Source: Candidatus Nutricula glyptotermitis
GTDB lineage: Bacteria > Actinomycetota > Actinomycetes > Actinomycetales > Bifidobacteriaceae
Reading direction: 5' to 3'
Length of the DNA: 23,173 nt
Assembly (NCBI GenBank): GCA_031263495.1
Contig: JAISFQ010000100.1
Span: 1-23,173, forward strand
In this document: positions 1,291-23,173 of the stretch, in pieces
Layout: every line of letters begins with the position of its first letter
How positions within the stretch are numbered: position 1 is the first letter of the stretch
The notes under the pieces: model-generated
Databases searched by the model: none
Told to the model about the DNA's origin: nothing
Seen by the model: only the letters and a program-made list of their open reading frames with translations
Program-made: the position numbers and the translations under genes

Positions 1291-4206
1291 ATGTCATTCT
1301 TAGATAAAATACTGCGCGCTGGCGAAGGTAAGGAACTTCGCAGGCTCGAGGATTATGCAAACCAAATAAATGCGCTTGAGCAGGACTTTGAGCGCATGGC
1401 TGATGAGGAACTTCGTGGGTCGACTGCGAGTTTCAGGGAAAGAGTTGAGAACGGTGAGGAACTTGATTCCTTGCTACCTGAAGCATTCGCAGCGGTTCGC
1501 GAAGCGTCGAAGAGAACGCTTGGTCAGAGGCACTTTGACGTCCAGTTGATGGGAGGTGCTGCGCTTCATCGCGGTAACATTGCCGAAATGAAAACTGGCG
1601 AGGGCAAGACACTTGTCGCGACTTTGCCTGCGTATTTGAACTCGCTTTCGGGCGATGGCGTGCATATTGTTACAGTTAACGATTATTTGGCGTCGTATCA
1701 GAGCGAACTCATGGGCAGGGTGTTTAGGTTTTTGAACACATCGGTCGGTTGCGTATTGACGAATCAGAAGAGTTTTGGGCGCAAGAAACAGTATGACGCT
1801 GATATTACTTATGGCACGAACAACGAGTTCGGCTTCGATTATCTGCGCGACAACATGGCGTGGGAAAAGGCAGATTTGGTGCAACGCGTCCACAATTTCG
1901 CGATTATCGACGAGGTGGACTCCATCTTAATCGACGAAGCGAGAACGCCACTTATCATTTCCGGACCTGCGATGGGCGAGGCGAACAAGTGGTACGTAGA
2001 ATTTGCGAAAATCGTGCGCAATTTGGAACGCGATGTGGACTATGAGATTGACGAGAAAAAGAAAACGGCAGGCATTTTGGAGCACGGAGTTGAGGAAGTG
2101 GAAAGAATGCTTGGCGTCAGTAATTTATACGAATCGCTTAACACACCGCTGATTGGCTATCTGAACAACGCAATTCGCGCGAAGGAACTTTTTGACTTGG
2201 ACGATGATTATATCGTGCGCAACGGCGAAGTGCTCATAGTCGACGAGCACACTGGGCGCGTTTTGGATGGTAGGCGATATTCTGAAGGCATGCATCAGGC
2301 GATTGAAGCGAAGGAAGGCGTAAAGATTAAGGCGGAAAACCAAACTTATGCCACCATAACGCTACAAAATTACTTCCGCATGTATAATAAACTGTCCGGC
2401 ATGACAGGCACGGCGGAAACGGAGGCTGGCGAGTTTATGTCGACCTACAACTTGGGCGTGATTCCGATTCCGACCAATAAACCGATGATTCGCGACGACA
2501 AAATCGACGTCGTTTACCGCACTGAGATTGCTAAGTTTAACGCGGTTGCAGATGATATTGAAGAGCGCAAGAACAAGGGTCAGCCAGTTTTGGTCGGCAC
2601 TGTGAGCGTCGAAAAATCTGAGTATTTGTCAAAGTTACTGCGTGAGCGCGGAGTTGAGCACAACGTTTTGAACGCGAAACAGCATGCACGTGAAGCGGCA
2701 GTCGTTGCGTTAGCAGGCAAAAAAGGCATGGTCACGGTCGCGACGAACATGGCTGGGCGCGGAACGGACATTATGCTTGGCGGTAACGCGGAGTTTTTGA
2801 CGCAGGAACGGCTGAAAGCGAAAGGTTTGGACCCAGAAGAGAACTCTGAGGAATACGAAAAGGCGTGGGGCGTTACTCTCGACGAAGTGCGCAAAGAAGT
2901 CGCTGCTGAGCACGATGAAGTTAGCGAACTCGGCGGACTTTATGTCTTGGGTACAGAACGCCACGAATCTCGCCGCATTGACAATCAGTTACGCGGTCGC
3001 TCGGGCAGGCAAGGTGACCCTGGTGAATCGCGCTTTTATATATCGCTCGACGACGATTTAATGCGTTTATTTAATACGGCGTTTGCGGAAAAAATGCTTT
3101 CAATGATCGACGCACCTGACGATATGCCGATCGAATACAAGACTATGTCTAAGAGCATTAGGCGTGCTCAGGCGCAGATTGAAGCGCGTAACTTTGAGAT
3201 TCGCAAGAACGTGCTTAAATATGACGAAGTTATGAACAACCAGCGCACAGTGATGTATCGCGAACGTGGCAGAGTTTTGCAAGGCGAGGACTTATACGAC
3301 CAAATTCAGCGCATGATTGATGGCGTTTTATCAGACACAGTTACAGTTGCGACGCTCGAAGGTAGCCCTGAAGAATGGAACTTGGACGCACTTTGGACGG
3401 AACTTCAAAATATCGCACCGATTACAGTCACAGCGGGCGATCTTATTGAAAAAGTTGGGATTATCGGCAGTTTAGCGCCTGATGATATAATCGACGCAGT
3501 TCTTGAAAATGCGCATGCGATTTACGACGAGCGCGAAGAAATGGTCGGCACTGAACAGATGCGCGATTTGGAGCGAAAAGTTCTACTTTCCGTGCTTGAC
3601 AGGAAGTGGCGCGAGCATTTGTATGCGATGGATTACCTGAAAGAAGGCATCGGACTTCGTGCAATGGCGCAAAAAGATCCGCTGGTCGAATACACTACCG
3701 AAGGTTCGCGCATGTTCAACGACATGAACGAAGCGATTCGCTTGGACACCGTCCGCACGCTGTTCAACATACAAATCAGGCGCGTCGAACCGACTGACGA
3801 ATCTGAATCTGAGACCGCAGAAATTGGCATTACCGAAGAAGCGCGTCAAAATGTTGACCTGCAATACAGCGCACCCGACGAAACCGCAGCCTCTGGTTCC
3901 CCGCTTGACAGTTTCCGCGAGGAAGCAGCACAAAACAACGCACAAGACCAGCAATCAGGCGAAAATGCACCTCAAAATCAGCAAACCACTCCCCCAAAGC
4001 CAGCAGTTCGTGAAGCAGAAAAACCTTGGTCTGATGGCAGAACTTTCCCTGGCACACCTAAAAACGCCGATTGCCCTTGTGGCTCTGGCAGAAAGTATAA
4101 ACTGTGCCATGGACAGAACGAAAAGAGTGCTGGAAATGGGAATGTTAACCATAAGAATGGCAAGTCTTCGAACAAAAAAGGCGGAAAGAAAAAGAAGAAA
4201 CGTTAA
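1291..4206 (+). CDS. secA: Preprotein translocase ATPase SecA. Has a C-terminal Q/N-rich linker, a zinc-binding motif ([14 protein letters not shown]) and a polylysine tail.
   Basis: 971 aa. Walker [13 protein letters not shown]-like DEVD, Walker B and helicase motifs, and a SecA signature throughout. The C-terminal CXCXSG(X8)CH zinc finger is canonical. Confidence 0.97.
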
Positions 4207-4235
4207 AAAACGGCATTGCGCTTTCGCTCATACTC

Positions 4236-4480
4236 CACCTCAGAATTCCGCACTACCCCACCTCAGAACCCCGCACAACTCCACCTCAGAATTCCGCACG
4301 TAGATGCGGAATCTTAATTAAAGTATTGCGTAGCAATGCGATCAAACGGCATTCGCCTAACGGCTCATACGATTCTTAAGATTCCGCATCACGCTCGCTA
4401 TCGCTCACGGTGCGGAATTCAGAAATGAAGTACTGCGTGGCATTAAGAGTACCCCCTTGTCATCCCGCGCGAGGCACCTT
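4236..4480 (+). repeat. Partial copy (head portion) of the composite modular intergenic repeat. It has three 22-nt tandem units 'actccacctcagaa(tt/cc)ccgcac', then an 88-bp MITE-like palindromic element (4303-4390) with 15-bp TIRs GATGCGGAATCTTAA, then 'ggtgcggaattcagaaatgaagtactgcgtggcattaagagtacccccttgtcatccc'.
   Basis: Direct sequence comparison with 13871-14836 (same orientation) and 8480-8760 (reverse complement). Confidence 0.8.
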
Positions 4481-5541: not shown

Positions 5542-8022
5542 ATGATAAAAGATTACAGATTGCTCACTTTGGCGCTATGTGTGTGGCTCGGCGGATTGTG
5601 CACATTCTTTATGCCCAGTTTACTGACTGTTTTACTGATGTTCGGCGTGTCGATGGGGCTGTTGTTACTGATGCTATTCTTAAAACAGTTCGCAGATTAC
5701 AGCATAAAAGACAAGCTTGCAACGTTTTTATGCATAATTATGGCGTTCGCGTTCAGTTTCATAATCACAAGTTACGTAGGCTTCGCGTTCCACCCAGATG
5801 TCAGTGCAAAAATTGGCAAAACAGTCACGGTAACAGGCACAATATCGTCAAATTCAAGTTCAAACGTCGATTTGCAAGGCGATGTTAAATGCTCGGCAGT
5901 AGTCGAATTGTCAAGTTTGAGAGAAGGCAGAATCGAAACGAATGCGCACTTTTTCATACGCGTGTTTTCGGACGATTCGATGTGCAAATACCAGTTCGGA
6001 GAGACAATTTCGGCACGCGGAAAAGTTACAGAACCGCTTTCGTTCTCAAAGGAAGCATTTTGGATGAACAACGCGAGCGTTACAAAAATCGGCGATGCAC
6101 CAGCCATCGAGCAGTTTTTCAACGACATGAAGGCACGCACAGTCGTCGCGACCGAGTCGATCGAGAACAAAGACGCGCTCGGCTTGATGTTCGGAATGTC
6201 GTTCGGCGACAAGCAATACATGTCCAAAACTTTGATTACGAACACCGCAAACTCGTCACTTTCGCACCTGACAGCGGTTTCAGGCACGCATTTGGTCATA
6301 CTAATCGCGGTTATACAGGCGTTTTTATTCGCACTCAGACTGCCAAACTTCGTGATTGTAGTGTTGCAAATTGTCATAATATCGTTCTTTACCATGTTTG
6401 TGCACAGCGTCGATTCCATAATGCGAGCAGCGTTTATGAGCATTGCGGGTTTGTTGTCAATCTTTTTCAAGCGACCGTCCAACGCAATTTCCGCACTCTC
6501 AGCAGGCATAATCGCGTTAATCTTGCTTGACCCATTTCGCGCGATTTCGTATGGATTTATACTTTCGTGTCTCGCAACTTTCGCAATCATAGTGTTCAGC
6601 GGCAAAATGGCAGAGAAATTGGAACGCGTTTTGGCCGAAAGTTTGGGCAAAATTGTGGCGATTCCGTTAGTCGCAACTATATTCTCAAGCCCGATAATTT
6701 ACCTGATGAATGGGCAGATTCAGTTACTCGGCGTGATTTCAAACATTCTCGTTTCGCCATTCGTTTCGGGCGCGACGATTTTCGGCATATTGAGCACTGT
6801 AACGTCATTTATCCCATCTCTCAGCGCAGTTTTGGGTTACATTGGCGCATTTTTCTCAAACTTTATCGTTGTTATCGCGAACGCAGTCGGCGAAATGCCA
6901 TTTGCAGCACCGATGTGGTTACCGTTTTTACCACTGCCAATAGGCTTTATGCTGATGATTGCGATGTTTGTCATAATGTACAACTTCAATCGCATATATA
7001 GGTTCATGTTCAAAAAAGTTACGGGTTACGAGGCGAGTGAGGCGAACAATTTGACCACGAAAGCGAAGCGCAAGTTCGCGAAGTTTACGCATAAATATAA
7101 GGAAATGTTTGCACTACAACCCGCAATCGTGATTTTCGCAGTTGTCATACTGATTTTGCCCATTACTGGCATTACTGCGTATTCCGTCCAGAACACAGGC
7201 AGCGTTCCGAAAACATGGATGATCGGCGCGTGCAAAGTCGGTCAGGGCGACGCAAATTTGATACGTACAGGTGCAAATAGTGCGATTTTGGTCGACACTG
7301 GACCTGACCTGGACCTGCTCACAGATTGCATGGACGCATTCGCAATCCACAACATCGATTTACTCGTCCTTACGCACTTTCACTCGGATCACGTCGCAGG
7401 CACTCGCGCTTTACTTGATAAACTACCAGTTAAACAGGCACTTGTTTCCCCTGTGCAAGCGTCCAGTAATGAAGTTAAAGATAATCTCACTGCATTGGAC
7501 GCGAAAAACATCCCGTACCACATCGCAGAAGCGGGCGAAACTGCAACAATTCAGTCAGGCGATTTCAATGTAAAGTGGGAAGTTCTACAAAGTAAAACCG
7601 CAGGTGACGTGACCAAAATGAGTGCCGCGAAACTTGACGACGCGGAAAACAATTCAAGCATTGCGTTATTTATCGAAGCAACTGACAGATTCGGCGGCAC
7701 AGAACAAAAACTTACAGAAATATTGCTTGGCGATTTGGAAAGTACAGGTCAAAGTTCCCTGCTCGGCGCGATTAAAGGTAACGCAAAGTACGCAAATGTC
7801 GACGTTCTGAAAGTCGCACATCATGGTTCAAAAACGCAAAATAAGGATCTCGCAAAGTTTCTCGCGCCAAAAGTTGCCATATATGATGTCGGCAAAAATA
7901 CATTCGGTCACCCAAACCCCACGACAGTCGAACTGTTTGAAAGCCTTGGTGCGGTTTCGCTCGACACGTTTTCATCAAATGTCGGAGTTTATGCGGGGGA
8001 TGGGTTGGTGGGGTTTAGATGA
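5542..8022 (+). CDS. comEC: DNA internalization competence protein ComEC/Rec2 (polytopic membrane competence domain plus C-terminal metallo-beta-lactamase domain)
   Basis: 826 aa with many TM helices. MBL motif LTHFHSDHVAG (HxHxDH) and a later AHHGS. SD GGGGTGG lies before the ATG at 5542. Gene order comEA-comEC. Confidence 0.9.
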   Translation: MIKDYRLLTLALCVWLGGLCTFFMPSLLTVLLMFGVSMGLLLLMLFLKQFADYSIKDKLATFLCIIMAFAFSFIITSYVGFAFHPDVSAKIGKTVTVTGTISSNSSSNVDLQGDVKCSAVVELSSLREGRIETNAHFFIRVFSDDSMCKYQFGETISARGKVTEPLSFSKEAFWMNNASVTKIGDAPAIEQFFNDMKARTVVATESIENKDALGLMFGMSFGDKQYMSKTLITNTANSSLSHLTAVSGTHLVILIAVIQAFLFALRLPNFVIVVLQIVIISFFTMFVHSVDSIMRAAFMSIAGLLSIFFKRPSNAISALSAGIIALILLDPFRAISYGFILSCLATFAIIVFSGKMAEKLERVLAESLGKIVAIPLVATIFSSPIIYLMNGQIQLLGVISNILVSPFVSGATIFGILSTVTSFIPSLSAVLGYIGAFFSNFIVVIANAVGEMPFAAPMWLPFLPLPIGFMLMIAMFVIMYNFNRIYRFMFKKVTGYEASEANNLTTKAKRKFAKFTHKYKEMFALQPAIVIFAVVILILPITGITAYSVQNTGSVPKTWMIGACKVGQGDANLIRTGANSAILVDTGPDLDLLTDCMDAFAIHNIDLLVLTHFHSDHVAGTRALLDKLPVKQALVSPVQASSNEVKDNLTALDAKNIPYHIAEAGETATIQSGDFNVKWEVLQSKTAGDVTKMSAAKLDDAENNSSIALFIEATDRFGGTEQKLTEILLGDLESTGQSSLLGAIKGNAKYANVDVLKVAHHGSKTQNKDLAKFLAPKVAIYDVGKNTFGHPNPTTVELFESLGAVSLDTFSSNVGVYAGDGLVGFR

Positions 8023-8292
8023 TGAATAATTCTTGCGTGTCATCCCCAGGTGCGCTACGCGCACCGTCTGGGAATCTGACTCCAACGTGTAAGCAACATA
8101 CACTTTTCAAAAGTAAGATTCCCAAACGCTCACTCATTATCACTCGTTCGTTGGGGATGACAAGAATCGGAATTCATTTCATTCATGCTCTGATTGCTCG
8201 CTTCGCTCGCAAGAATCGGAATTCGCTATCGCTCATACTCTTACAGCGCTGGCGTATGGTTTCGCCTACGGCGCAACAATACTTGCGCATTG

Positions 8293-8452
8293 CTTGGATT
8301 TTTCAATGTGAAAAATCCAAGCCTCTGCTGTAAAGCTGCTTTTGGGCTGGGAGTTGCTCTGCTTAAGAGCGGCTTGGCTTGCCATAGGCAAGCCAAGCCT
8401 TAGCGCAACACACACAACAACAAGCGAAAAGCGAAGTTGTTTTGTGTGTTGC
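8293..8452. repeat. Cluster of three perfect hairpins. H1 is 8293-8321 (11-bp stem, cttggattttt/aaaaatccaag). H2 is 8371-8399 (13-bp stem, ggcttggcttgcc-ata-ggcaagccaagcc). H3 is 8405-8452 (17-bp stem with one bulge, gcaacacacacaacaac / gttgttttgtgtgttgc).
   Basis: The inverted repeats were read directly. No flanking U-runs, so these are not canonical intrinsic terminators. Confidence 0.7.
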
Positions 8453-8479
8453 GAGGTAAAAGTGTGAGCGTGAGCGAAC

Positions 8480-8760
8480 TCCGTTTTGTACGTAGCGAGG
8501 AGTACTCTATAATGCCACGCAGTACTTCATTTCTGAATCCCGCACCGCGAAACGAAGTGTAGCGTGATGCGGAATCTTAATTAAAAGTATGAGCCGTCAG
8601 GCGAATGCATTTATTGGTGTTCGCATACGCTCACACTAGTTTTAAGATTCCAGAGGGTCGGACGCTCCTCGCGTCCTCCTACACAGAATTCAGAGTGGTG
8701 GAGTAGTGCGGGGTTCTGAGTACCCCCTTGTCATCTAGCAAGCGAATGCGATGCGGGATC
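8480..8760 (-). repeat. Reverse-orientation partial copy of the composite modular repeat, including the MITE-like palindromic element at 8566-8651.
   Basis: The reverse complement of 8507-8540 matches 'cggtgcggaattcagaaatgaagtactgcgtggcatta' at 4411-4448. 8566-8651 begins with 'gatgcggaatcttaa' and ends with 'ttaagattcc'. Confidence 0.75.
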
Positions 8761-8848
8761 TGCATCACCCAAGAATGTACGTCACCTTCTAGAAACCAGA
8801 TCCCGTGTCGCGCACTACCGTGCGCTACCTAGATGACAAGTAAGGTGA
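8736..8848. repeat. Inverted pair of the ~40-bp 'cttgtcatctag...gggatctg' element (R2). The arms at 8736-8771 and 8802-8844 flank a ~30-nt core, a miniature palindromic element.
   Basis: The reverse complement of 8802-8844 is 'cttgtcatctaggtagcgcacggtagtgcgcgacacgggatctg', which matches 13800-13848 and 14822-14870. Confidence 0.7.
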
Positions 8849-8949
8849 AGTGCACCATGCGCGCGGTAGCAATGCACAAGTCAGAGGGCGCGGAGCGCAC
8901 GCTGACGCAGTGCTATTGGAGTATGAGCGAAAGCGAATTCCGATTCCTA

Positions 8950-9048
8950 ATTATTAACTATTAACTATTCATTATTAACTAACCGCATTACTCATTACTC
9001 ATTACTCATTACTCATTACTCATTACTCATTATTCCTTACTCATTAAC
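8950..9048 (+). repeat. Heptanucleotide microsatellite array. About 5 attaact-type units are followed by 6 perfect CATTACT units (8986-9027) and variants (cattatt, ccttact, cattaac). It ends ~20 nt upstream of the -35 of the operon promoter.
   Basis: Counted unit by unit in the sequence. Confidence 0.9.
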
Positions 9049-13201: not shown

Positions 13202-13555
13202 GGGGATGATTGGCATCGACTGTATTATGTGATTCAGAGTAAGCGAGCGGAGAATGTGCCTAACTCTTTAAAATTGGTGCAAACTATAAGTGCAAACACA
13301 AATCGCACTGGTTATGCCCTAGCGGCGTAATCCGTCCGACTGATAATTTTGCTTTCGGTCATCAGTTGGGCGTCGTAACTAGAAAGCCACTGGTCATTTG
13401 TCATGTTGGTGGGCAAATGGCGAGACTTTAATCAACTTGGGTATGCTATTTCGTCTGTTTGAGACGCATACTTGAAACTTAACAAGCAGACTGCGCTCGG
13501 AGAAAGTTTTGATGAAGTAATTTGGGACCCGGGTTCGACTCCCGGCATCTCCACA
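13202..13555 (+). ncRNA. ssrA: tmRNA (SsrA), standard one-piece. Tag ORF 13292-13330 encodes ANTNRTGYALAA followed by a stop.
   Basis: 5' GGGGATGATTGGCATCGAC, compared with the E. coli GGGGCUGAUUCUGGAUUCGAC. The 3' T-arm GGGTTCGACTCCCGG plus CATCTCC-A pairs with the 5' GGGGATG through a G3·U wobble (AlaRS identity). The resume codon is GCA, and the tag ends ...YALAA-TAA. Confidence 0.9.
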
Positions 13556-13583
13556 TGTACTTCGCTGAAAAAGCAGTACTGGG

Positions 13584-13696
13584 GGATTCTAAGAAATTAT
13601 TTTCTTTTTCTCCTGTACCTTATGAGTAAATAAGCAATATGCTTATTTACTCAACGGTGAAGTCGAAAAAGCAAAATAATTTTTTAGAATCCCTGA
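13584..13696 (+). repeat. Long nested hairpin immediately 3' of ssrA. The outer ~21-bp stem is gggattctaagaaattatttt / aaaataattttttagaatccc. The inner perfect 12-bp stem is gagtaaataagc-aatat-gcttatttactc (13624-13652).
   Basis: Inverted repeats read directly. Possibly the ssrA terminator or an att-site remnant. Confidence 0.6.
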
Positions 13697-13799
13697 AGCT
13701 ACTTTATTCGCTCAGGGTTGAGTTCAGGTTGGGGGACTTTTTGTTTGGTTGTTTATGAATACCTTGGTTTAGCAGACGTGGGTGATGTTGCTTTGTTTT

Positions 13800-13848
13800 T
13801 TATTTGTCATCTAGGTAGTGTGCAAAGCACGCGACACGGGATCTGCAT
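13800..13848 (+). repeat. R2 element (ttgtcatctaggtag, a short hairpin, then gcgacacgggatctg). This copy forms a direct repeat with 14822-14870, and the pair flanks the tandem array.
   Basis: Sequence identity with 14822-14870 apart from the hairpin core. Confidence 0.75.
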
Positions 13849-13870
13849 TCAAGAACTGTAAGTTTATTCT

Positions 13871-14836
13871 CGCTCATACTCCACCTCAGAACCCCGCACA
13901 TACTCCCACTCTGAATTCCTGCGAAGGCAGGAATCTTAAAACTAGTGTGAGCGCATGCGAACACCATTAAATGCATTCGCTATTGCTCATAGGGTCAAAT
14001 GGGGTCAAATGCTCATTCGCATTTTCCTCCGCTGGGTCAAATGCTCAATCGCATTCTCCTCCGTTTCAAGAGTCCGCATCACGCTACACTTCGTTCCGCG
14101 GTGCGGAATTCAGAGTAAGAGTATTGCGTGGCATGTAAGAGTACTGCTTGTTACGTACGAATCGGAGTTCGCTTCGCTCACACTCTTACCCCCGCAACTT
14201 TTCAAAACAACTTCGCTTACGGGATGACAAGGTACTTCTTGCTAATACTCCACCTCAGAACCCCGCACATACTCCACCTCAGAACCCCGCACTCCGTTGC
14301 GGAATCTTAAAACTAGTGTGAGCGCATGCGAACACCATTAAATGCATTCGCTATCGCTCATAGGGTCAAATGCTCAATCGCATTCTCCTCCATTTCAAGA
14401 TTCCGCATCACGCTCGCTTCGCTTCACGGTGCGGAATTCAGAGTAAGAGTATTGCGTGGCATTAAGAGTACTCCTCGCTACGTACAAAAAGGAGTTCGCT
14501 TCGCTCACGCTTTTACCCGCGCAACTTTTCAAAACAACTTCGCATACGGGATGACAAGGTACTTCTTGCTCATACTCCACCTCAGAATTCCGCACATACT
14601 CCCACTCAGAATTCCGCACTTGTTGCGGAATCTTAAAACTAGTGTGAGCGTATGCGAACACCATTAAATGCATTCGCTAATCGCTCATAGGGTCAAACGC
14701 TCATCCGCGAGGGTCAAATGCTCAATCGCATTCTCCTCCATTTCAAGATTCCGCATCACGCTACACTTCGTTTCTCGGTGCTAAATTCAGAGGTGAAGTA
14801 CTGCGTGGCATTAGGAGTACTACCTTGTCATCTAGG
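13871..14836 (+). repeat. Tandem array, about 2.7 copies (periods 369 and 327 bp), of the composite modular repeat. Each unit holds 22-nt 'actccacctcagaaccccgcac' sub-repeats, a MITE-like palindrome (gcggaatcttaaaa...tttcaagattccgc) and a 'gggatgacaagg' inverted-repeat module.
   Basis: 'tactccacctcag' recurs at 13877, 14246 and 14573. The ORFs of the track inside it (e.g. the duplicated MRTPLNAFAIAHRVK... peptides) are repeat artefacts. Confidence 0.85.
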
Positions 14837-14870
14837 TAGCGCGTGAAACGCGCGACACGGGATCTGGCTT
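14822..14870 (+). repeat. R2 element, the second copy flanking the tandem array
   Basis: ccttgtcatctaggtagcgcgtgaaacgcgcgacacgggatctg. Confidence 0.75.
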
Positions 14871-15025
14871 CTTACTATGTAACGTACTTTCTCGCTAATC
14901 GCAGATCCCGCATCGCTTCGCTCGCGGGATGACAACTGTGGTGATGCATCGTGCATACTCGCTGAATTTGAGAAGTTAAAAGTGCAGACAGTGAACTTAA
15001 TGATGGGAAAAAATCTCACGAAATT

Positions 15026-15556
15026 TCATAAGTTCTTTGCGAGTATTTCTCCTTTTTCACGTTTAAGTTCTATTAATCTGGACTGCTCTGTGGATATTTG
15101 CTGTTCAAGGTTCTTAACCTTTGATACTATCTTTTCTTGAATGCGAAGTGGGGGAATTATGACAGTATATTCTAATATTTTTCTTTTATCTCCACGTGGC
15201 ATTTTTGTACCATTTGCGGTTTGCATTGCATAATTGAAAAACCTATCATCCATCAATAGGCGCATAATGAATAGTGGCAAAATATCTTTTGCATGAGATT
15301 CGTTCAATTGCAAAACTAAAACATCGCCACTCGCTCCACCAGAATTATTTGCAAACCAAATCTTTTTTAGATAAGGTCTGATGTTGCCAATCAGAATATC
15401 ACCCTCATTATACTTTGCGTAGTTGCCGTCTATGGGAACAAAGTTTGATTGCTGTTTTCCGAGTTTACCCTGTAGCAGATTATCAACTCCAACATAATTT
15501 TCAGGATTCAATTCTGCGGAACTTATTTTATTTCGGCTATAGTGTAGAATCTCCAC
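15026..15556 (-). CDS. HsdS-like target-recognition domain 2 plus conserved region (IIPPLRIQEKIV). It is the out-of-frame 3' continuation of the upstream R-M-S gene. As a separate ORF it would use a GTG start.
   Basis: 176 aa. The 'PPL..QEKI' conserved HsdS motif and the coiled-coil tail parallel the C-terminus of the upstream ORF (IPVPPIDVQEKII). Frame is +1 relative to the upstream ORF. Confidence 0.75.
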   Translation of the reverse strand: MEILHYSRNKISSAELNPENYVGVDNLLQGKLGKQQSNFVPIDGNYAKYNEGDILIGNIRPYLKKIWFANNSGGASGDVLVLQLNESHAKDILPLFIMRLLMDDRFFNYAMQTANGTKMPRGDKRKILEYTVIIPPLRIQEKIVSKVKNLEQQISTEQSRLIELKREKGEILAKNL

Positions 15557-15560
15557 TAAT

Positions 15561-18500
15561 TTATATTTTTGCCCCCCCCCCCCTTAAATTGTCCATTATA
15601 CTGGAGATTTGAGTGCTTAGGTCTGCGATTTGCTCTTTGGCAATTTGTTCTTGTTGCTCAACTTCTTCGTAATCAGCGATTATTTTTTCTTGTACGTCAA
15701 TTGGTGGCACTGGTATTTGTATATTCTCCACTGCACTTTGATTAATGCCTCCTTGTGCCGCTCCAGCTTTTGCATTACGTAAAAGAGCTTGTCCAGTTTC
15801 TGACAGGAGCATATAAAACAAATATTTTTGCAATACATCCGAATTCTCTCTTACACGCAATATAAATATATGCTCATTGACCATGACTTTTTCATTAGCA
15901 AACTCGTTCCTTACAAGTGCCACTTTCCCTGTTTGTGCACCATCTTTACAGATTAAAATATCGTTTACCTTCAACTTTGCGCTTTCTTTTGCACTTTTAT
16001 AATACTCATGTGGCACATATTTTGGTGAACTTAAATTGATATACCCCGAAGTACTGTCGATATGTTCACCTCCGATGCTTAAAGCACCATTTTCTATATT
16101 CTTGACACCACCTTTAGGTCTACTCCCACTTATAGGCTTGTCCGTTAAAAATTGCCCGATTGCTTTAAGGGGGTACTCTGTATTCCAGTCAATTTTCTCA
16201 TTTGCTCCGACTCCACTTTCATTAGTCAAGTTAATCACTTTATGAAAAACAGGTGTCTGCCAATCAATCATGTCCTCCAAGTAATTGACACTGACGTATT
16301 TTTCTAAATGCTTGGGTATATTTACCGTTTCGCCATTGAAGTTTTTGCGAATCAACCCATTGATTGTTCCTGTTCCCAAATATAAATTGTCGGGGTCAAA
16401 CAGTGGAGTTTGAATTTGGCTTATATCTCCTGCGAGAATTCCAATTCCCTCGTTCCCTTTGCGATTTGACCAGCCATAACCTAGAAATTTTTCTGCAGTA
16501 TCTCCGGTTTTCTCAGAAGGCGTTTTAACTATCAAGACAGGGCATGGGTTGTTTTTTGCAAGCATAAAACAGAGCAAACGCTCTTTATGCGTTTTGTTTG
16601 CAAGGACTTTTTTTGACGTCAATTTAACTTTTTTGCAATATTGCTGAAAAAGCTTTTTGTCTCTGAAAACTGAACTTTCAATTTTTTTGTCATTAAACCA
16701 TTTCTCTACACGATTTTTATACTGATCATAGCTAGAAGGGTTGTCAGACTTCTTTCTAAGGAATAGAGTCGAAGTGACCACACCAGTTTTTCCAAAAGTA
16801 GTAGCACCTGATTCAAAGATTGCGATAATGTCAAAATTCTTAAGCAATATATTTCTGCCTTCGATAAAGATAGTTTCATGGCTGTTTAAGATAGAAATAG
16901 GCAAAATGACAGTTGCGACTCCACTAGGTTTAAGTAATTTGGCGGCTTTTTCTAAGAAAAACACTTCAATATCGTCATTAGTCGGGACGTGTTTTTCTTT
17001 TAGTGCGTTATTGTATGCATCATAGTTTTCTCGGTAATCTTCAATTGTTTCAAGAAATCCTTTTACTGAATAAGGAGGGTTTGCAATCAAAACGGAAAAC
17101 GAGTTGTCTTCAATGCCGTTAACATCCGTTAATGCATCCGCATATTTTATTTTGATTTCTTTTTGCCCATACATGAGAGCGGAAACTTTTGCCACCTTCG
17201 CTAGACGACTTTCTTTCTCAATCCCATAGATTTCAGAATAATGCTTACTCAACTGTTTATCATCATCTACATAATGTGCAATTTGTGTTGCATATTCATT
17301 CAGAAAATGTCCTGCACCACATGCATAATCAATCACTTTTGGAATTTCATTTTGCTCAATAATTTCTTTTAGTGGCAACGAAGATACTAAGAAGCGTACG
17401 ATTGGAGTTGGTGTGAAAAATTGCCCTTCACTTTGCTTTACGCCATCATTCAAAAAGTTTTCAAAAAAATCACCTAAGAATTGATGTGACACTTTGGATG
17501 TAATCTGTAAATCTTCTAACATCTCAACCACCTGTATAAGAATCTCAGCATTTTGCTCAAAGAGAACTTCATTGTAAACGTCTAAGAACGAAAAATAGTT
17601 GTTAGAATAAAATCGCAGTCTGTCGAACTTTTCTTGAATTTTATCAAGTGTTGCATCTGGATCTGTTTTGACGAACTTAAAAGCGTCACGGACTTCTTCG
17701 CGACTCACATACTCAACTTTCTCGGACATGTGCTCCCACATCCCTTTGCGGTATAATTTCTGCAATCTATCAAATAAATCTTTCCGATCGTCAAATGCGA
17801 TAGTGTGCCAATAGAAGTCTAACTTCTCTTTATTTTCTGCACTTTCGATAACCTCTAGTTCATCAACCACTTTTGCGAGAAGTAAATTCAACAACTTATC
17901 AAAAGCGTTTTCTCTACCAGATACATTATACTTTCGTAAAATCTCACGAAAAGTATGGTATTTTCTAGCGAGAATGCTCGCGAAATTAGGAGTGTTGCTA
18001 GAATTGAGTAAATCATTAATACTGACAAACTTTTTGCCGACATTAAAAGGCTCTATATCTTTTTCAAACATCCCCATTGACGAGACAGCTCCACGATACG
18101 TCCCCTGCCAAACTTGATATAATTCGCGACTATTATTTGATAGCGCATATGATTCCGCCTGCTTATTGTCATTGAGATAGGATTCGTTGTCGTTCAAGAT
18201 TACCAATTGATATTCTCGTGATAAATCATAATTTTCAAATACCTGTTCATTGATTTTACTCTCAGATGTTTTAATGAAATCCGAAGTGTATAAGACTAGG
18301 TTTGGAAAACGGCGTTCACCATTTTCATCGGTATGTCCGAGAACTTGTGCATAATCAAAAAGTTGCCCACCAGACATTTCAAGTCTTTTTTTTGCCTTTC
18401 CGTACTCTTTTCCTGGCGTTTTGCATTCAATCAGAGCAAAACAGTTATCGTTTCTGTCTGATATGCGAATGTCTGCCCAGTTTAGCTTATTTGTTTGCAA

Positions 18501-18797
18501 TTTGAATTCGAGAGTTATATCCTCGGGATGATAATGCAACTCAAATAGACGGTTAACGCACTCAAAAACGACAAAACTCTCATTTTGATGAAAAGAGGTG
18601 ATTGTAGTTGCTCTGTCATATCTCACGCCATCAGGATATATAAACTCCTGCTTCCTCGTGTCCACAGCGAGCTTGAATTCACTCGCCTTTCCAACATCGA
18701 ACACCTTTTCATACTTTCCCTCTTTGTCATCTGTAAACTCTAAATGTTTTAGTAACTTTGGGAATGTCGCTTTAGTAATCATATTTTGCCCTTCCAT
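15561..18797 (-). CDS. Single-chain Type IIB/IIG-like restriction-modification enzyme. It has an N-terminal PD-(D/E)xK nuclease, a gamma-class N6-adenine methyltransferase and a C-terminal HsdS-like TRD1. It is truncated relative to a full R-M-S by the G12 tract.
   Basis: 1078 aa. Nuclease motif ISDRNDNCFALIECKTPG. MTase motif I DYACGAGHFL and motif IV LIANPPYS. C-terminal TRD with IQIPVPPIDVQEKII. The likely true start is M6 (ATG 18782), which is preceded by SD GAAGGG. Confidence 0.85.
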   Translation of the reverse strand: MEGQNMITKATFPKLLKHLEFTDDKEGKYEKVFDVGKASEFKLAVDTRKQEFIYPDGVRYDRATTITSFHQNESFVVFECVNRLFELHYHPEDITLEFKLQTNKLNWADIRISDRNDNCFALIECKTPGKEYGKAKKRLEMSGGQLFDYAQVLGHTDENGERRFPNLVLYTSDFIKTSESKINEQVFENYDLSREYQLVILNDNESYLNDNKQAESYALSNNSRELYQVWQGTYRGAVSSMGMFEKDIEPFNVGKKFVSINDLLNSSNTPNFASILARKYHTFREILRKYNVSGRENAFDKLLNLLLAKVVDELEVIESAENKEKLDFYWHTIAFDDRKDLFDRLQKLYRKGMWEHMSEKVEYVSREEVRDAFKFVKTDPDATLDKIQEKFDRLRFYSNNYFSFLDVYNEVLFEQNAEILIQVVEMLEDLQITSKVSHQFLGDFFENFLNDGVKQSEGQFFTPTPIVRFLVSSLPLKEIIEQNEIPKVIDYACGAGHFLNEYATQIAHYVDDDKQLSKHYSEIYGIEKESRLAKVAKVSALMYGQKEIKIKYADALTDVNGIEDNSFSVLIANPPYSVKGFLETIEDYRENYDAYNNALKEKHVPTNDDIEVFFLEKAAKLLKPSGVATVILPISILNSHETIFIEGRNILLKNFDIIAIFESGATTFGKTGVVTSTLFLRKKSDNPSSYDQYKNRVEKWFNDKKIESSVFRDKKLFQQYCKKVKLTSKKVLANKTHKERLLCFMLAKNNPCPVLIVKTPSEKTGDTAEKFLGYGWSNRKGNEGIGILAGDISQIQTPLFDPDNLYLGTGTINGLIRKNFNGETVNIPKHLEKYVSVNYLEDMIDWQTPVFHKVINLTNESGVGANEKIDWNTEYPLKAIGQFLTDKPISGSRPKGGVKNIENGALSIGGEHIDSTSGYINLSSPKYVPHEYYKSAKESAKLKVNDILICKDGAQTGKVALVRNEFANEKVMVNEHIFILRVRENSDVLQKYLFYMLLSETGQALLRNAKAGAAQGGINQSAVENIQIPVPPIDVQEKIIADYEEVEQQEQIAKEQIADLSTQISSIMDNLRGGGAKI
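15572..15583 (-). repeat. Homopolymeric tract: C12 on + (G12 on the coding strand), encoding ...RGGGAKI* at the 3' end of the R-M-S ORF. Candidate slipped-strand phase-variation switch.
   Basis: Counted as 15572-15580 (9 C) plus 15581-15583 (3 C). With G11, the reading ...RGGGQKYKLVEILHYSRNKIS... continues into the downstream TRD2 ORF. Confidence 0.9.
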
Positions 18798-22500: not shown

Positions 22501-23072
22501 CACTAGAAGAGTTTTCCGCGCTTGAAAAGCGTTATCAGTTCCTAAATCAAGAACTGCAAGATGTCATAAAAGCACGCCTTGACCTGCTCGACATCATAAA
22601 GTCAATCGACGAATATGTGTCTGACGAGTTCAAGTCCGCATTCCACGACATCGCCGAAAACTTTGAGCGCATATTTTCGCTACTGTTCCCCGGCGGAATC
22701 GGCAAAATCACGCTCGAAAACCCCGACGACATACTAAACTCAGGCGTATTAATCGAAGTTGCGCCTGCTGGCAAGAAGTTGAAGCACATCAACCTTCTCT
22801 CAGGTGGCGAAAAATCACTGTCCGCGTTCGCATTCCTAGTCGCAATTTTTGAAGCACGCCCAAGCCCATTCTACATTCTTGACGAAATCGAAGCCGCACT
22901 CGATGACATCAATACAGAACGCCTATTAAACCTGCTCGAAACCCTAAAACGTCACGCCCAACTAATCATCGTCACCCACCACAAGCGCACAATCGAAATC
23001 GCCGATGCACTCTACGGCGTCACCATGAAAGGCGACGGAATCAGCAAAGTCGTGAGCCAGAAGTTGGGCTGA
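19572..23072 (+). CDS. smc: Chromosome partition protein SMC
   Basis: 1166 aa. N-terminal Walker A GPNGSGKSN, long coiled coils, a hinge, then the C-terminal ABC signature LSGGEKSLSAFAFLVAIF and Walker B FYILDEIEAALD. The ATG abuts the scpB stop and is preceded by SD GGAGG. Confidence 0.95.
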   Translation: MHLKSITLRGFKSFAKTTELLFEPGITAIIGPNGSGKSNIVDALSWVMGEQGAKNQRAQSMQDVIFSGSKEKRELGRAEVKILLDNSDQKLPLDYTEIEISRLLFRNGGSQYKINGQNVRLLDVLELLSDAGLGQMMHIIVGQGRLESILQSSADDKRFYIEEAANVAKHKMRKNRSLSKLDAIEKDVFRLQDIKIEIEKQLSPLNRQAKTAKRAGDIQARLREIAAILYVNEYNTLRLTAEKLQSEIAENTEKLGALHGNQTVISEKIAEIERFDFENNPEIDSLQQTWYRLTNLEAKFQSLLQTATNEQAILISNANQFNETQLTEKAENTKQKLTDLDIEIVKITQNLAKLDANLAKVRTELESAKQEYTTAELKESAQKKIIQDKREGIANINGQLDTLNERIATLKTTITENKTKLETETKTLETLETTANEALSATQKSESAIQNATQRNTETSAKLDAMLAKLNEKKSKITDINVEIQKVTTKMRVLESELVPKDVSKTLIDSKKLYAKGIVSTLIKITHGYEKAINAALREFHDSVVVESVNTAVDAILMTNSDELGTISMLIAQNTNAQNTHKKHANLTYVTDFIENLNDINLSFAGTILANYVYAENLNDARNILQNATDVTVVTKNGDIISNQFAKSGGRKNTTLFELNREFDDCKVSLKNLENELETENKALSGIQSEFDKKNADFTSAQQQLSALREAVENENKQLRKAEYDRDIQKSRVTQMEAEIVSSTQELESLHKNVDELAIRRKNFELNPQEAARQEIVLEKEAEIARKKYLDAEKIVQSVLAEVQLATQQKELLEREKQTAEGDIQALDDEKQRSIEQSIQQNEKLNRIKNAIPVVKQCIEKIGVSIKNVMETQTEASEKKSANATLLRDYRLEFSNINAELQKINEPLQKLQIDHAVNKNSIQSLKDRIQREQSADLDALIAVYGKKLETENIDEIADEQEELTRKLRNLGKINPLALEEFSALEKRYQFLNQELQDVIKARLDLLDIIKSIDEYVSDEFKSAFHDIAENFERIFSLLFPGGIGKITLENPDDILNSGVLIEVAPAGKKLKHINLLSGGEKSLSAFAFLVAIFEARPSPFYILDEIEAALDDINTERLLNLLETLKRHAQLIIVTHHKRTIEIADALYGVTMKGDGISKVVSQKLG

Positions 23073-23173
23073 TGGGTAATGAGTAAGGAGTAAGGAGTAA
23101 TGAATAGTGAATAATGAGTAAGGAGTAATGAGTAAGGAGTAATGAGTAAGGAGTAATGAGTAAGGAGTAATGA
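23073..23173 (-). repeat. Heptanucleotide array in reverse orientation: alternating GAGTAAT/GAGTAAG, i.e. 14-mer units, at least 14 heptamers. It runs off the end of the window.
   Basis: Reverse complement of the CATTACT/CCTTACT units seen at 8986-9048 and 122-149. Confidence 0.9.

Follow-up and report, generated by a model that had tools for sequence, protein, structure and literature searches.

Nested hairpin repeats and a tandemly duplicated composite in the spacer downstream of ssrA in an uncultured actinobacterium-like lineage

The spacer between ssrA and the restriction-modification genes

The window, by which we mean the whole stretch of DNA analysed, spans the 23,173 bp of one contig in a single short-read metagenome assembly, the sole source from which the array described here is known. 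The tmRNA gene ssrA lies on its plus strand at 13202-13556, as delimited by ARAGORN and by a match to Rfam RF00023 of 154.5 bits, and encodes the tag peptide ANTNRTGYALAA, which we take to be actinobacterial in appearance; no second copy of the 3' end of the gene occurs in the window, even allowing three mismatches. An AT-rich, near-perfect palindrome of 111 nt, not assigned to a strand, starts 27 nt past ssrA (13583-13693; 83% self-blast identity over 113 nt). Its predicted RNA fold reaches -92.9 kcal/mol (z = -8.5), and as a hairpin element or terminator in its own right it stands outside repeat families A and B, described below. The tmRNA alone passes the gathering score of Rfam 15, and an E-value search of 13550-15030 against Rfam returned only sub-threshold, spurious matches to miRNA hairpins, on this palindrome.

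The spacer that leads from ssrA to the restriction-modification (R-M) locus is a non-coding mosaic of hairpin repeats in which one composite is present in 2.7 tandem copies. The three units, with starts near 13877, 14246 and 14573 and periods of 369 and 327 nt, show pairwise identities of 84-89%, and no exact repeat that they share exceeds 54 nt. Tandem Repeats Finder detects an array at 14034-14703 with a period of 327, 2.0 copies, 91% matches and a score of 1128, while the repeat search (family D4) gives in-register starts of 13860, 14229 and 14556 when a 17-nt leader is included. A CRISPR array was considered and rejected, since whole units of 327-369 nt repeat and there are no unique spacers.

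The core of each unit belongs to family A, a hairpin of about 170-290 nt whose left arm is made of one to three 23/24-nt modules and which encloses a nested inner hairpin and a 32-nt minisatellite. Unit 1 (13877-14245, plus strand, 369 nt), delimited by repeat search and alignment, holds two 24-nt arm modules, an inner hairpin (TGCGGAATCTTAA..TTAAGATTCCGCA) whose left arm is degenerate here, the 32-nt module repeated about 2.3 times (13992-14062), the right arm GTGCGGAATTCAGAGTAAGAGTAT, an extension (14145-14220), GGGATGACAAGG (14221-14232) as a B-type right end, and the next unit's leader. Unit 2 (14246-14572, plus strand, 327 nt; fold -92.3 kcal/mol, z = -2.4 against shuffles) follows the same plan with a single 32-nt module (14363-14391), its extension at 14472-14547 and GGGATGACAAGG at 14548-14559. 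Unit 3 (14573-14822, plus strand, 250 nt) is without the extension, and its right arm directly adjoins a CCTTGTCATC end at 14823; if its left limit is set at the GGGATGACAAGG of 14548 and its right limit at the CCTTGTCATCTAG end (14823-14835), this unit alone has both inverted ends, which form 17-nt arms that are 88% complementary (14550-14566 and 14816-14832; I10). Three motifs are strongly enriched in the window: the 22-mer ACTCCACCTCAGAAYYCCGCAC (8 occurrences, 0 expected), TGCGGRAT (17 against 1.8) and GATGACAA (12 against 1.2), the last being found at ends of 8-12 nt whose orientation alternates along the array. Between copies, the 32-nt module GGGTCAAATGCTCAATCGCATTCTCCTCC varies from 0 to about 2.3, the 23/24-nt module from one to three, and the 76-nt extension is present in some and absent from others. 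The preliminary description of this DNA had already placed the unit starts at 13877, 14246 and 14573, which agree with the D4 register without the 17-nt leader, and had called the third unit truncated, which alignment A1 traces to the missing extension; its account of the modules (22/24-nt reiterations, nested inverted repeats, here I1-I14, and GGGATGACAAGG/CCTTGTCATC ends) and of modular indels also holds, the latter in the differing numbers of 23/24-nt, 32-nt and 76-nt modules. In the long stems of A, the arms of the few copies are mostly invariant.

The array is framed by the second family, B, a hairpin of about 113 nt with TTGTCATC/GATGACAA ends and a small stem-loop tagged by GTAG, whose left arm reads TTGTCATCTAG-GTAG-hairpin-GACACGGGATCTG. 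On the ssrA side, B1 (13800-13876, plus strand; D6; A3; nhmmer E = 1.3e-19) consists of the left arm and loop of B and is broken by unit 1; it retains the TTGTCATCTAG end, GTAG at 13815-13818, the 6-bp hairpin at 13818-13832 and GACACGGGATCTG. On the R-M side, B2 (14823-14935, plus strand; E = 4e-33) is a complete element of 113 nt with CCTTGTCATCTAG, GTAG at 14836-14839, the hairpin at 14839-14853 and GGGATCTG...CAGATCCC, followed by GGGATGACAA at 14926-14935; its fold also beats shuffles (z = -2.6). Direct repeats of 45 bp had been noted on either side of the array and likened to target duplications or recombination scars. The repeats are there, as 47-nt copies at 13804-13850 and 14825-14871 (D6), but that reading finds no support, because they are 83% identical left arms of a separate family, B, that is found elsewhere too.

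Elements outside the array and their coding status

A further complete B and a diverged one lie in the comEC spacer, which brings to four the copies of the small B hairpin that can be compared. Three of them read GGTAG, a GC-rich stem of 6 bp, a loop of 3-4 nt and CGAC, with the GTAG tag at 13815, 14836 and 8828 (minus strand), and the fourth, B4, carries CAGG. Across the four copies all 24 of 24 cells pair and four of the six base pairs have changed on both sides, a pairing score that was reached by 3 of 500 shuffles and that collapses when the register is slid. The hairpin is under structural constraint. The right arm of B holds no counterpart of it: each B has a single hairpin, and an inverted REP doublet is not formed.

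Profile searches with nhmmer place all copies within 4208-4467, 8031-8950 and 13798-14940, that is, at three separate intergenic sites in the 23-kb window; these are its three large spacers, each bounded by genes that are co-directional or convergent, and the coding regions are free of copies. At the first site, an A-type element, C4 (4208-4467, plus strand), starts a few bases past the secA stop at 4206 and comprises three arm modules with a period of 23 nt (4231-4299; the period is 24 in the array), an inner hairpin and a right arm, and it ends in CCTTGTCATCCCG, with CCTTGTCATC at 4455; it has neither the 32-nt module nor the extension, and its fold of -76.4 kcal/mol clearly exceeds shuffles (z = -4.5). 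At the second, the diverged B4 (8036-8166, plus strand; A3; nhmmer E = 3e-24) begins 14 nt past the comEC stop at 8022. Downstream of it, two arms of a large inverted repeat, 8213-8294 on the plus strand and 8868-8946 on the minus strand (74% identity), enclose C5 and B3, which is evidence of nesting. C5 (8429-8725, minus strand) is an inverted A-type element that has the extension, matches the array units at 78-83% identity and contains a private insert of about 30 nt that has its own small hairpin, and B3 (8726-8843, minus strand; E = 1.5e-32) is a complete B with perfect 12-nt CTTGTCATCTAG/CTAGATGACAAG ends. Array units and dispersed copies as a whole share 68-83% identity. Elements thus begin from a few to 27 nt past secA, comEC and ssrA, and their orientation relative to the upstream gene varies, C4 and the array lying on the plus strand and C5 and B3 on the minus strand. 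Matching short direct repeats were not found beside B2, B3 or C4, a weak test in that most copies abut other elements.

The array is crossed by open reading frames of 90, 113 and 92 aa (13955-14227, 14326-14667 and 14395-14673), and a further one, 8019-8333, covers B4. None of the array frames has a Pfam match or a homologue among 5.8 billion proteins, the 113-aa frame has no record as a called gene, the frame at 8019-8333 has neither a Pfam match nor a record as a gene, and the six-frame translation of one unit found no match in the same 5.8 billion proteins. At least these four frames should not be called genes. The earlier suspicion that the array generates illusory frames is thereby confirmed, as is the presence of partial copies after secA and, inverted, near 8.5 kb, which proved slightly wider than first drawn (4224-4467, plus strand; 8429-8860, minus strand) and are joined by the additional B-type element at 8036-8166. 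Within the array, promoters and terminators are not enriched, and no terminator-like stem with a T-run behind it was seen.

Outside the window, we found no relative of the repeats. The exact 22-mer has no match in GTDB species genomes, JGI metagenomes or IMG/VR; the 18-mer AAGAKTCCGCATCACGCT has 17 single metagenome matches, which we attribute to chance because none comes with extended similarity. Searches by blastn and nhmmer came back empty from fetched loci totalling 1.5 Mb, among them the regions flanking SecA in 80 other bacteria, and plasmid and phage collections gave no match. The host itself stands apart: its SecA reaches at most 69% identity among 5.8 billion proteins, the best relatives (57-69%) all being Actinomycetota. 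Heptamer arrays are also dispersed in the intergenic DNA of the window; their reading as STRR/SDR repeats of Nostocales, and hence a cyanobacterial origin, was rejected on the grounds of these SecA relatives and of the look of the tmRNA tag. A look-up of the window proteins in Logan gave only short contigs of run SRR14710921, all inside the window.

Origin and spread of the composite

Not only the units but also the junction between them is duplicated, 14136-14293 recurring at 14463-14620 with 89% identity and no gap (D2), which argues for tandem duplication of one composite rather than repeated insertion and points to modules that did not reach the array locus independently. Moreover, A sits inside a B scaffold, since the unit leader AAGGTACTTCTTGCTAAT aligns with the loop of B (D4) and the unit tail CTTCGCNTACGGGATGACAA with its right end (D7). 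One may therefore picture three steps, in which an A element with its 76-nt extension would have been placed inside the loop of a B, the A-in-B composite would have been duplicated in tandem twice, likely by unequal recombination or replication slippage between repeated modules, and later indels would have altered the internal modules, unit 3 losing its extension. Simple duplication alone would be too tidy, because in unit 2 the left arm is of type 1 and the right arm of type 2. The divergence of 11-16% between units, high for a recent array, would be compatible with an old array or with exchange with other copies. The spread of the elements, present or past, would probably depend on recognition of their hairpins or ends by a transposase whose gene lies elsewhere; the window holds no transposase or integrase gene, nor a RAYT gene. 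The elements are tolerated only directly 3' of genes, and their hairpins may there terminate or stabilise transcripts. Taken together, we consider it likely that the cluster, made up of at least two related groups, A and B, is a new family of mosaic repeats akin to MITEs, REP/BIMEs and BOX, non-coding, non-autonomous and nested, with a composite that has been tandemly duplicated and a spread that is probably effected in trans.

A more specific reading would make the GTAG hairpin of B a true REP, bound as single-stranded DNA by a REP-associated tyrosine (HUH Y1) transposase with a single gene elsewhere in the genome; this enzyme, and not recombination, would have made both the array and its ends of alternating orientation. 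Its appeal lies in the three GGTAG-stem-loop-CGAC copies with compensatory changes, in their resemblance to published REPs such as the Xanthomonas GTAGGAGCGCGCTCGCGCGCGA (PMC2817692), in ends that alternate in orientation as REPs do in BIMEs, and in the placement of the elements, as GTAG-tagged REPs, known from 8 phyla, are for the most part found past gene ends, with flanking ORFs that are co-directional or convergent (PMC3733652). The number of GTAG hairpins in the window, however, is 3 against 1.6 expected for any such hairpin, and even these count as one observation because all are copies of one element. CAGG in B4, the single hairpin per B, the size of A, which forms the bulk of the repeat and far exceeds a REP, and a window free of RAYT genes speak against it as well, and we regard it as a minority possibility. 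That a genuine GTAG REP is present in a deep-branching, low-GC actinomycetotan, where a domesticated HUH tyrosine transposase drives the whole A/B mosaic as a REP/BIME-type system, processes its large composite hairpins (170-290 nt) and itself builds the arrays, we consider unlikely; the REP/RAYT literature searched makes no mention of such systems in Actinobacteria.

Elements that serve the host at 3' ends, as terminators, stabilisers of mRNA or tmRNA 3' ends or small RNAs spread by recombination, would explain the positions just past three genes, the stable folds and the covarying hairpin of B. This reading is quite improbable in the face of the missing Rfam family, the array scan free of terminator signals, the copies that point either way with respect to the gene upstream and the consideration that termination needs no 2.7 tandem copies. 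ssrA is a classic integration site of islands, and the array might also be seen as bracketed by att sites or target duplications left by a mobile segment or R-M island inserted beside it, with the adjoining ssrA, the low GC of the neighbouring R-M locus and the two direct copies in its favour. We find this scarcely credible, given that the copies are only 83% identical, include no ssrA 3' end and do not bracket the R-M genes, that the same sequence recurs within two B elements, 8726-8843 and 8036-8166, that enclose no array, and that the window contains no integrase.

There is finally the question of whether dispersed copies were collapsed or chained by the assembler, so that the array and the linkage of ssrA to the R-M genes would not be real in the cell. 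The copy number rests on one assembly, since the Logan contigs recovered through the flanking genes end at 13236 and resume at 14906 and hence do not span 13237-14905, and GC falls from 48% to 37% directly right of the array. Logan assemblies use k=31, and they also break inside unique genes such as comEC; the contig breaks do not serve as evidence of repeats, as several fall in unique coding DNA. With at most 54 nt of exact repeat between units, 150-nt reads could resolve the array, which becomes unique at k >= 55. The three units further differ by ordered, consistent indels, unlike a collapsed repeat, and an independent contig (L082) links the R-M genes to scpB and smc. An artefact is very improbable, and the position of the contig end is itself likely due to the hairpin repeats and heptamer arrays.

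Comparison with known repeat systems

The resemblance to BOX- and BIME-type composites proposed in the preliminary description is borne out at the level of architecture. BOX elements of Streptococcus pneumoniae are reportedly built as boxA-boxB(n)-boxC, and the present repeats are BOX-like in architecture only, with one to three arm modules and a 32-nt module that numbers from 0 to about 2.3 between conserved pairing arms; like BOX, they have pairing end modules and a variable internal tandem module, are intergenic and non-coding, and carry no transposase of their own. Unlike BOX, with which they share no sequence, the 23/24-nt module belongs to one hairpin arm and the entire composite, not merely an inner box, is in tandem. 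MIRUs of Mycobacterium are said to be units of 46-101 nt within operons that often extend ORFs. They share with our array the tandem intergenic arrangement, the actinobacterial genome and the variation in whole-unit copy number, but have no nested hairpins.

As in MITEs (Correia/NEMIS, ERIC/IRU, RUP, Nezha), the elements measure 100-300 nt, are non-autonomous, bear terminal inverted repeats, can fold into a single long hairpin and lie near gene ends, sometimes nested; unit 3 and B3 in particular are non-coding, shorter than about 400 nt and have inverted ends. They depart from classical MITEs in that no target-site duplication was identified, there is no known insertion sequence with the same ends that could be their parent, and the ends GATGACAAGG are common to two fillings, in 'outside' and 'inside' arrangements. 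A precedent is BrickBuilt of Porphyromonas gingivalis, a MITE with an internal 23-nt minisatellite that is always intergenic (PMC4596501), likewise with small inverted ends around the minisatellite and confined to one lineage; BrickBuilt is mostly minisatellite with many units, whereas one to three units stand here at one arm together with nested hairpins.

BIME, REP and REPIN systems have been described in Enterobacteria, Pseudomonas, Xanthomonas and Stenotrophomonas (PMC2817692, PMC3333891, PMC3733652, PMC3116915). The likeness lies in intergenic positions downstream of genes, in a palindromic mosaic with alternating orientation and recurring linkers that is amplified locally in tandem, and in a GTAG tag ahead of a short, GC-rich stem-loop that preserves its pairing through changes of sequence; the difference lies in a main module of 170-290 nt, against 20-40 nt for a REP, in a GTAG hairpin restricted to B, once per element and never as an inverted doublet, and in a host that by SecA is closest to Actinomycetota. 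If the GTAG hairpin were abundant genome-wide and accompanied by a matching tyrosine transposase, REP-type systems would extend to an actinobacterial lineage. The kind of repeat is well known; the family had not been recorded before, and the lineage, uncultured and actinobacterium-like, is unusual for it. About 1.15 kb 3' of ssrA consists of repeat DNA. Among the public data searched this lineage has no close relative, and the density of nested hairpin repeats and heptamer arrays in its intergenic DNA is a load more familiar from Proteobacteria, pneumococci and cyanobacteria.

Genomic setting and distribution of the repeats

The window carries rpe and hpf, secA (1291-4206), a comEA-like gene, comEC (5542-8022), genes for an SPFH protein, a TIR-TPR protein and a 149-aa hypothetical protein, the tmRNA gene ssrA (13202-13556), a restriction-modification pair on the minus strand (15026-18797), scpB and an SMC-family gene. 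Its GC content is about 45%, and the organism's best matches are Cellulomonadaceae and Bifidobacteriaceae-type Actinomycetota: SecA finds its best matches in Actinomycetota among GTDB species genomes (57-65% identity) and, after itself, in Cellulomonas, Actinotalea, Isoptericola and Bifidobacteriaceae among 5.8 billion proteins (64-69%). Heptamers of the TACTCAT/TACTCCT family, on either strand, form arrays at 118-147, 8948-9046 and 23072-23173, the last running past the contig end, and these arrays probably caused the right-end contig break. They look like cyanobacterial STRR heptamer arrays although the host's SecA is of actinobacterial type; a cyanobacterial host, which they had suggested, is ruled out since SecA is closest to Actinomycetota. 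No close relative of the organism appeared in the searched data, SecA reaching at most 69% identity to any of the 5.8 billion proteins. The window is a complete JGI contig of 23,173 bp otherwise matched only by Logan contigs of run SRR14710921, so that no close relative is available for comparison.

Profile searches of the window place all copies of the repeats within 4208-4467, 8031-8950 and 13798-14940, that is, in the three large spacers of the window, where the elements start a few to 27 nt past the ends of secA, comEC and ssrA, between genes that are co-directional or convergent. The same placement, mostly 3' of genes and between co-directional or convergent ones, is described for REPs in PMC3733652. 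The open reading frames that the array generates had been called illusory, and indeed they have neither a Pfam match nor a homologue among 5.8 billion proteins. The change of the arm-module period between 23 and 24 nt also fits non-coding DNA. One further ORF (8019-8333, 104 aa), with a 4-nt overlap at the comEC stop, resembles an operon gene by position; it lies wholly on a diverged B element and a repeat arm, matches no Pfam family, is absent from the called genes on record and is probably spurious.

Searches for the 22-mer as an exact match found no copy in GTDB species genomes, JGI metagenomes or IMG/VR; 17 matches to an 18-mer in JGI metagenomes were attributed to chance, being without extended similarity. 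Plasmid and phage collections held no copy, nor did 1.5 Mb of retrieved loci, among them the secA flanks of other bacteria, and the repeat family is so far known from this organism alone.

Architecture of the two elements

The tandem array that the preliminary description had proposed between ssrA and the restriction-modification locus was recovered by Tandem Repeats Finder (14034-14703, period 327, 2.0 copies, 91% matches, score 1128), and repeat alignment puts three units in register, the first at 13860 and the others 369 nt (14229) and a further 327 nt (14556) along. Tandem Repeats Finder also reported shorter tandem repeats: two pairs of a 24-nt unit (14245-14292 and 14571-14619), a triple of a 23-nt unit (4231-4299) and a pair of a 32-nt unit (14002-14063). 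The 22-nt reiterations are equally real: the 22-mer ACTCCACCTCAGAAYYCCGCAC occurs eight times in the window against 0 expected, CCTTGTCATCYNG six times against 0.1, TGCGGRAT 17 times against 1.8 and GATGACAA 12 times against 1.2, nine of the 12 inside repeat regions. Partial copies were likewise found where anticipated, at 4224-4467 (+) and 8429-8860 (-).

Modules were resolved by aligning the three units with two dispersed copies for element A, and by aligning the copies of element B. Element A is a long hairpin whose left arm holds one to three reiterations of the module ATACTCCACCTCAGAA(YY)CCGCAC (by Tandem Repeats Finder, the period is 23 nt in one copy but 24 nt elsewhere), followed by a nested inner hairpin, TGCGGAATCTTAA ... 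TTAAGATTCCGCA, around a variable core, and whose right arm is GTGCGGAATTCAGAR..GAAGTACTGCGTGGCATTAAGAGTAC. The core holds a 32-nt unit, GGGTCAAATGCTCAATCGCATTCTCCTCC, in the array only, at a copy number of 1 to about 2.3. Folds of A are more stable than those of shuffled sequences (z = -4.5 for the secA copy, z = -2.4 for unit 2). A 76-nt extension lies 3' of A in unit 1 (14145-14220), unit 2 (14472-14547) and the inverted copy C5 (8429-8725), and is absent from unit 3 and the secA copy. Arm variants (AACCCC vs AATTCC, and CCACCTCAG vs CCCACTCTG) combine differently from copy to copy.

Element B (about 113 nt; fold z = -2.6) reads, in order, TTGTCATCTAG, GTAG, a 6-bp GC-rich stem-loop, GACACGGGATCTG, a loop and CAGATCCCGCATCGC..CGCGGGATGACAA. 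It is complete at 14823-14935 (+) and 8726-8843 (-), diverged at 8036-8166, and reduced to left arm and loop at 13800-13876. The right halves of A and B are alike (AGATTCCGCATCACGCTCGCTTCGCT in A, cf. AGATCCCGCATCGCTTCGCT in B), and this similarity suggests that the two are probably diverged relatives.

Several smaller palindromes accompany these elements. At about 8652-8685, C5 has a private insert of about 30 nt in place of part of an arm; it bears its own small hairpin (GGACGC-GAGGA-GCGTCC), was seen in one copy only, and may represent the insertion of a very small palindrome. Two more perfect hairpins lie at 8360-8470 between comEC and the repeat cluster, namely GGCTTGGCTTGCC-ATA-GGCAAGCCAAGCC and GCAACACACAAAACAAC..GTTGTTTTGTGTGTTGC; the left arm of the latter corresponds to the last part of the 76-nt extension, and the array units are without its partner arm. 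A 111-nt AT-rich near-perfect palindrome (13583-13693; -92.9 kcal/mol, z = -8.5), 27 nt past the tmRNA 3' end, is unrelated to A and B by blast, has only spurious miRNA-precursor matches in Rfam, and might serve as the ssrA terminator or be one more small hairpin element.

Proposed assembly of the array by nesting and duplication

The direct repeats said to bracket the array exist (47 nt, 13804-13850 vs 14825-14871, 83% identity); they are the left arms of the B elements at 13800-13876 and 14823-14935. The leader of each unit (AAGGTACTTCTTGCTAAT) aligns with the B-loop end, AACGTACTTTCTCGCTAAT, and its tail (CTTCGCNTACGGGATGACAA) with the right end of B, so that a unit consists of B-loop end, A, extension and B right end. 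The B left arm at 13800-13876 lies directly 5' of unit 1; on the simplest reading, an A element would have inserted into a B loop. The unit 1/2 junction (14136-14293) is repeated at unit 2/3 (14463-14620) with 89% identity and no gap, and units are 84-89% identical to one another against 68-83% to dispersed copies. Together with the leader and tail matches, these alignments indicate that one composite was duplicated in tandem rather than inserted three separate times. The 11-16% divergence of the units and their mixed arm types show either an array of some age or one that has traded sequence with other copies. The 8-kb site is also nested, an inverted repeat (8213-8294 / 8868-8946, 74% identity) enclosing C5 and the B copy beside it.

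The array is unlikely to be an assembly artefact, as exact repeats between units reach at most 54 nt, but only a single assembly spans 13237-14905. A genomic-island att site at ssrA was rejected, as the window contains one copy of the ssrA 3' end and lacks an integrase; CRISPR was rejected too, the array having no CRISPR-like spacers. The tmRNA was the only Rfam family to pass in the window, and the array shows no promoter or terminator enrichment. The neighbouring restriction-modification locus has 36-39% GC vs 45-49% in its flanks and encodes a 1078-aa fusion of an N6 methylase, an Eco57I-like domain and a specificity domain, followed 4 nt later by a separate 176-aa half specificity subunit with 19% identity to the fused one. 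It was probably acquired horizontally; neither an integrase nor an att repeat was found for it.

The GTAG hairpin and known repeat systems

Three copies of the B hairpin read GGTAG-TGTGC-AAA-GCACG-CGAC, GGTAG-CGCGT-GAA-ACGCG-CGAC and GGTAG-CGCAC-GGTA-GTGCG-CGAC, and a fourth, without GTAG, reads CAGG-TGCGC-TAC-GCGCA-CC. Across the four aligned copies all 24 cells are standard pairs and four of the six pairs have changed on both sides, a degree of pairing and covariation reached by just 3 of 500 shuffles, and all slid registers collapse. Scanning the window for GTAG followed by a stem returned exactly three sites, the three GGTAG copies. None of the four B copies forms an inverted doublet of the hairpin, and no RAYT gene lies in the window.

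The BOX/BIME-type composite put forward in the preliminary description is upheld in its architecture, as a hairpin-forming nested mosaic dispersed over three spacers, one composite of which is tandemly amplified. That the elements transpose in trans, which enzyme would move them and any role they may have at transcript 3' ends are matters of inference. The family is new and its kind is known: intergenic repeats that form hairpins and are arranged as nested mosaics (MITE / REP-BIME / BOX type). That kind is ordinary, but the lineage of the host and the lead given by the GTAG hairpin are mildly unusual. The B hairpin matches the form of GTAG-tagged REPs as given in the table of PMC2817692 and in PMC3733652, and this likeness, drawn from only four related copies, offers no more than a lead towards that class.
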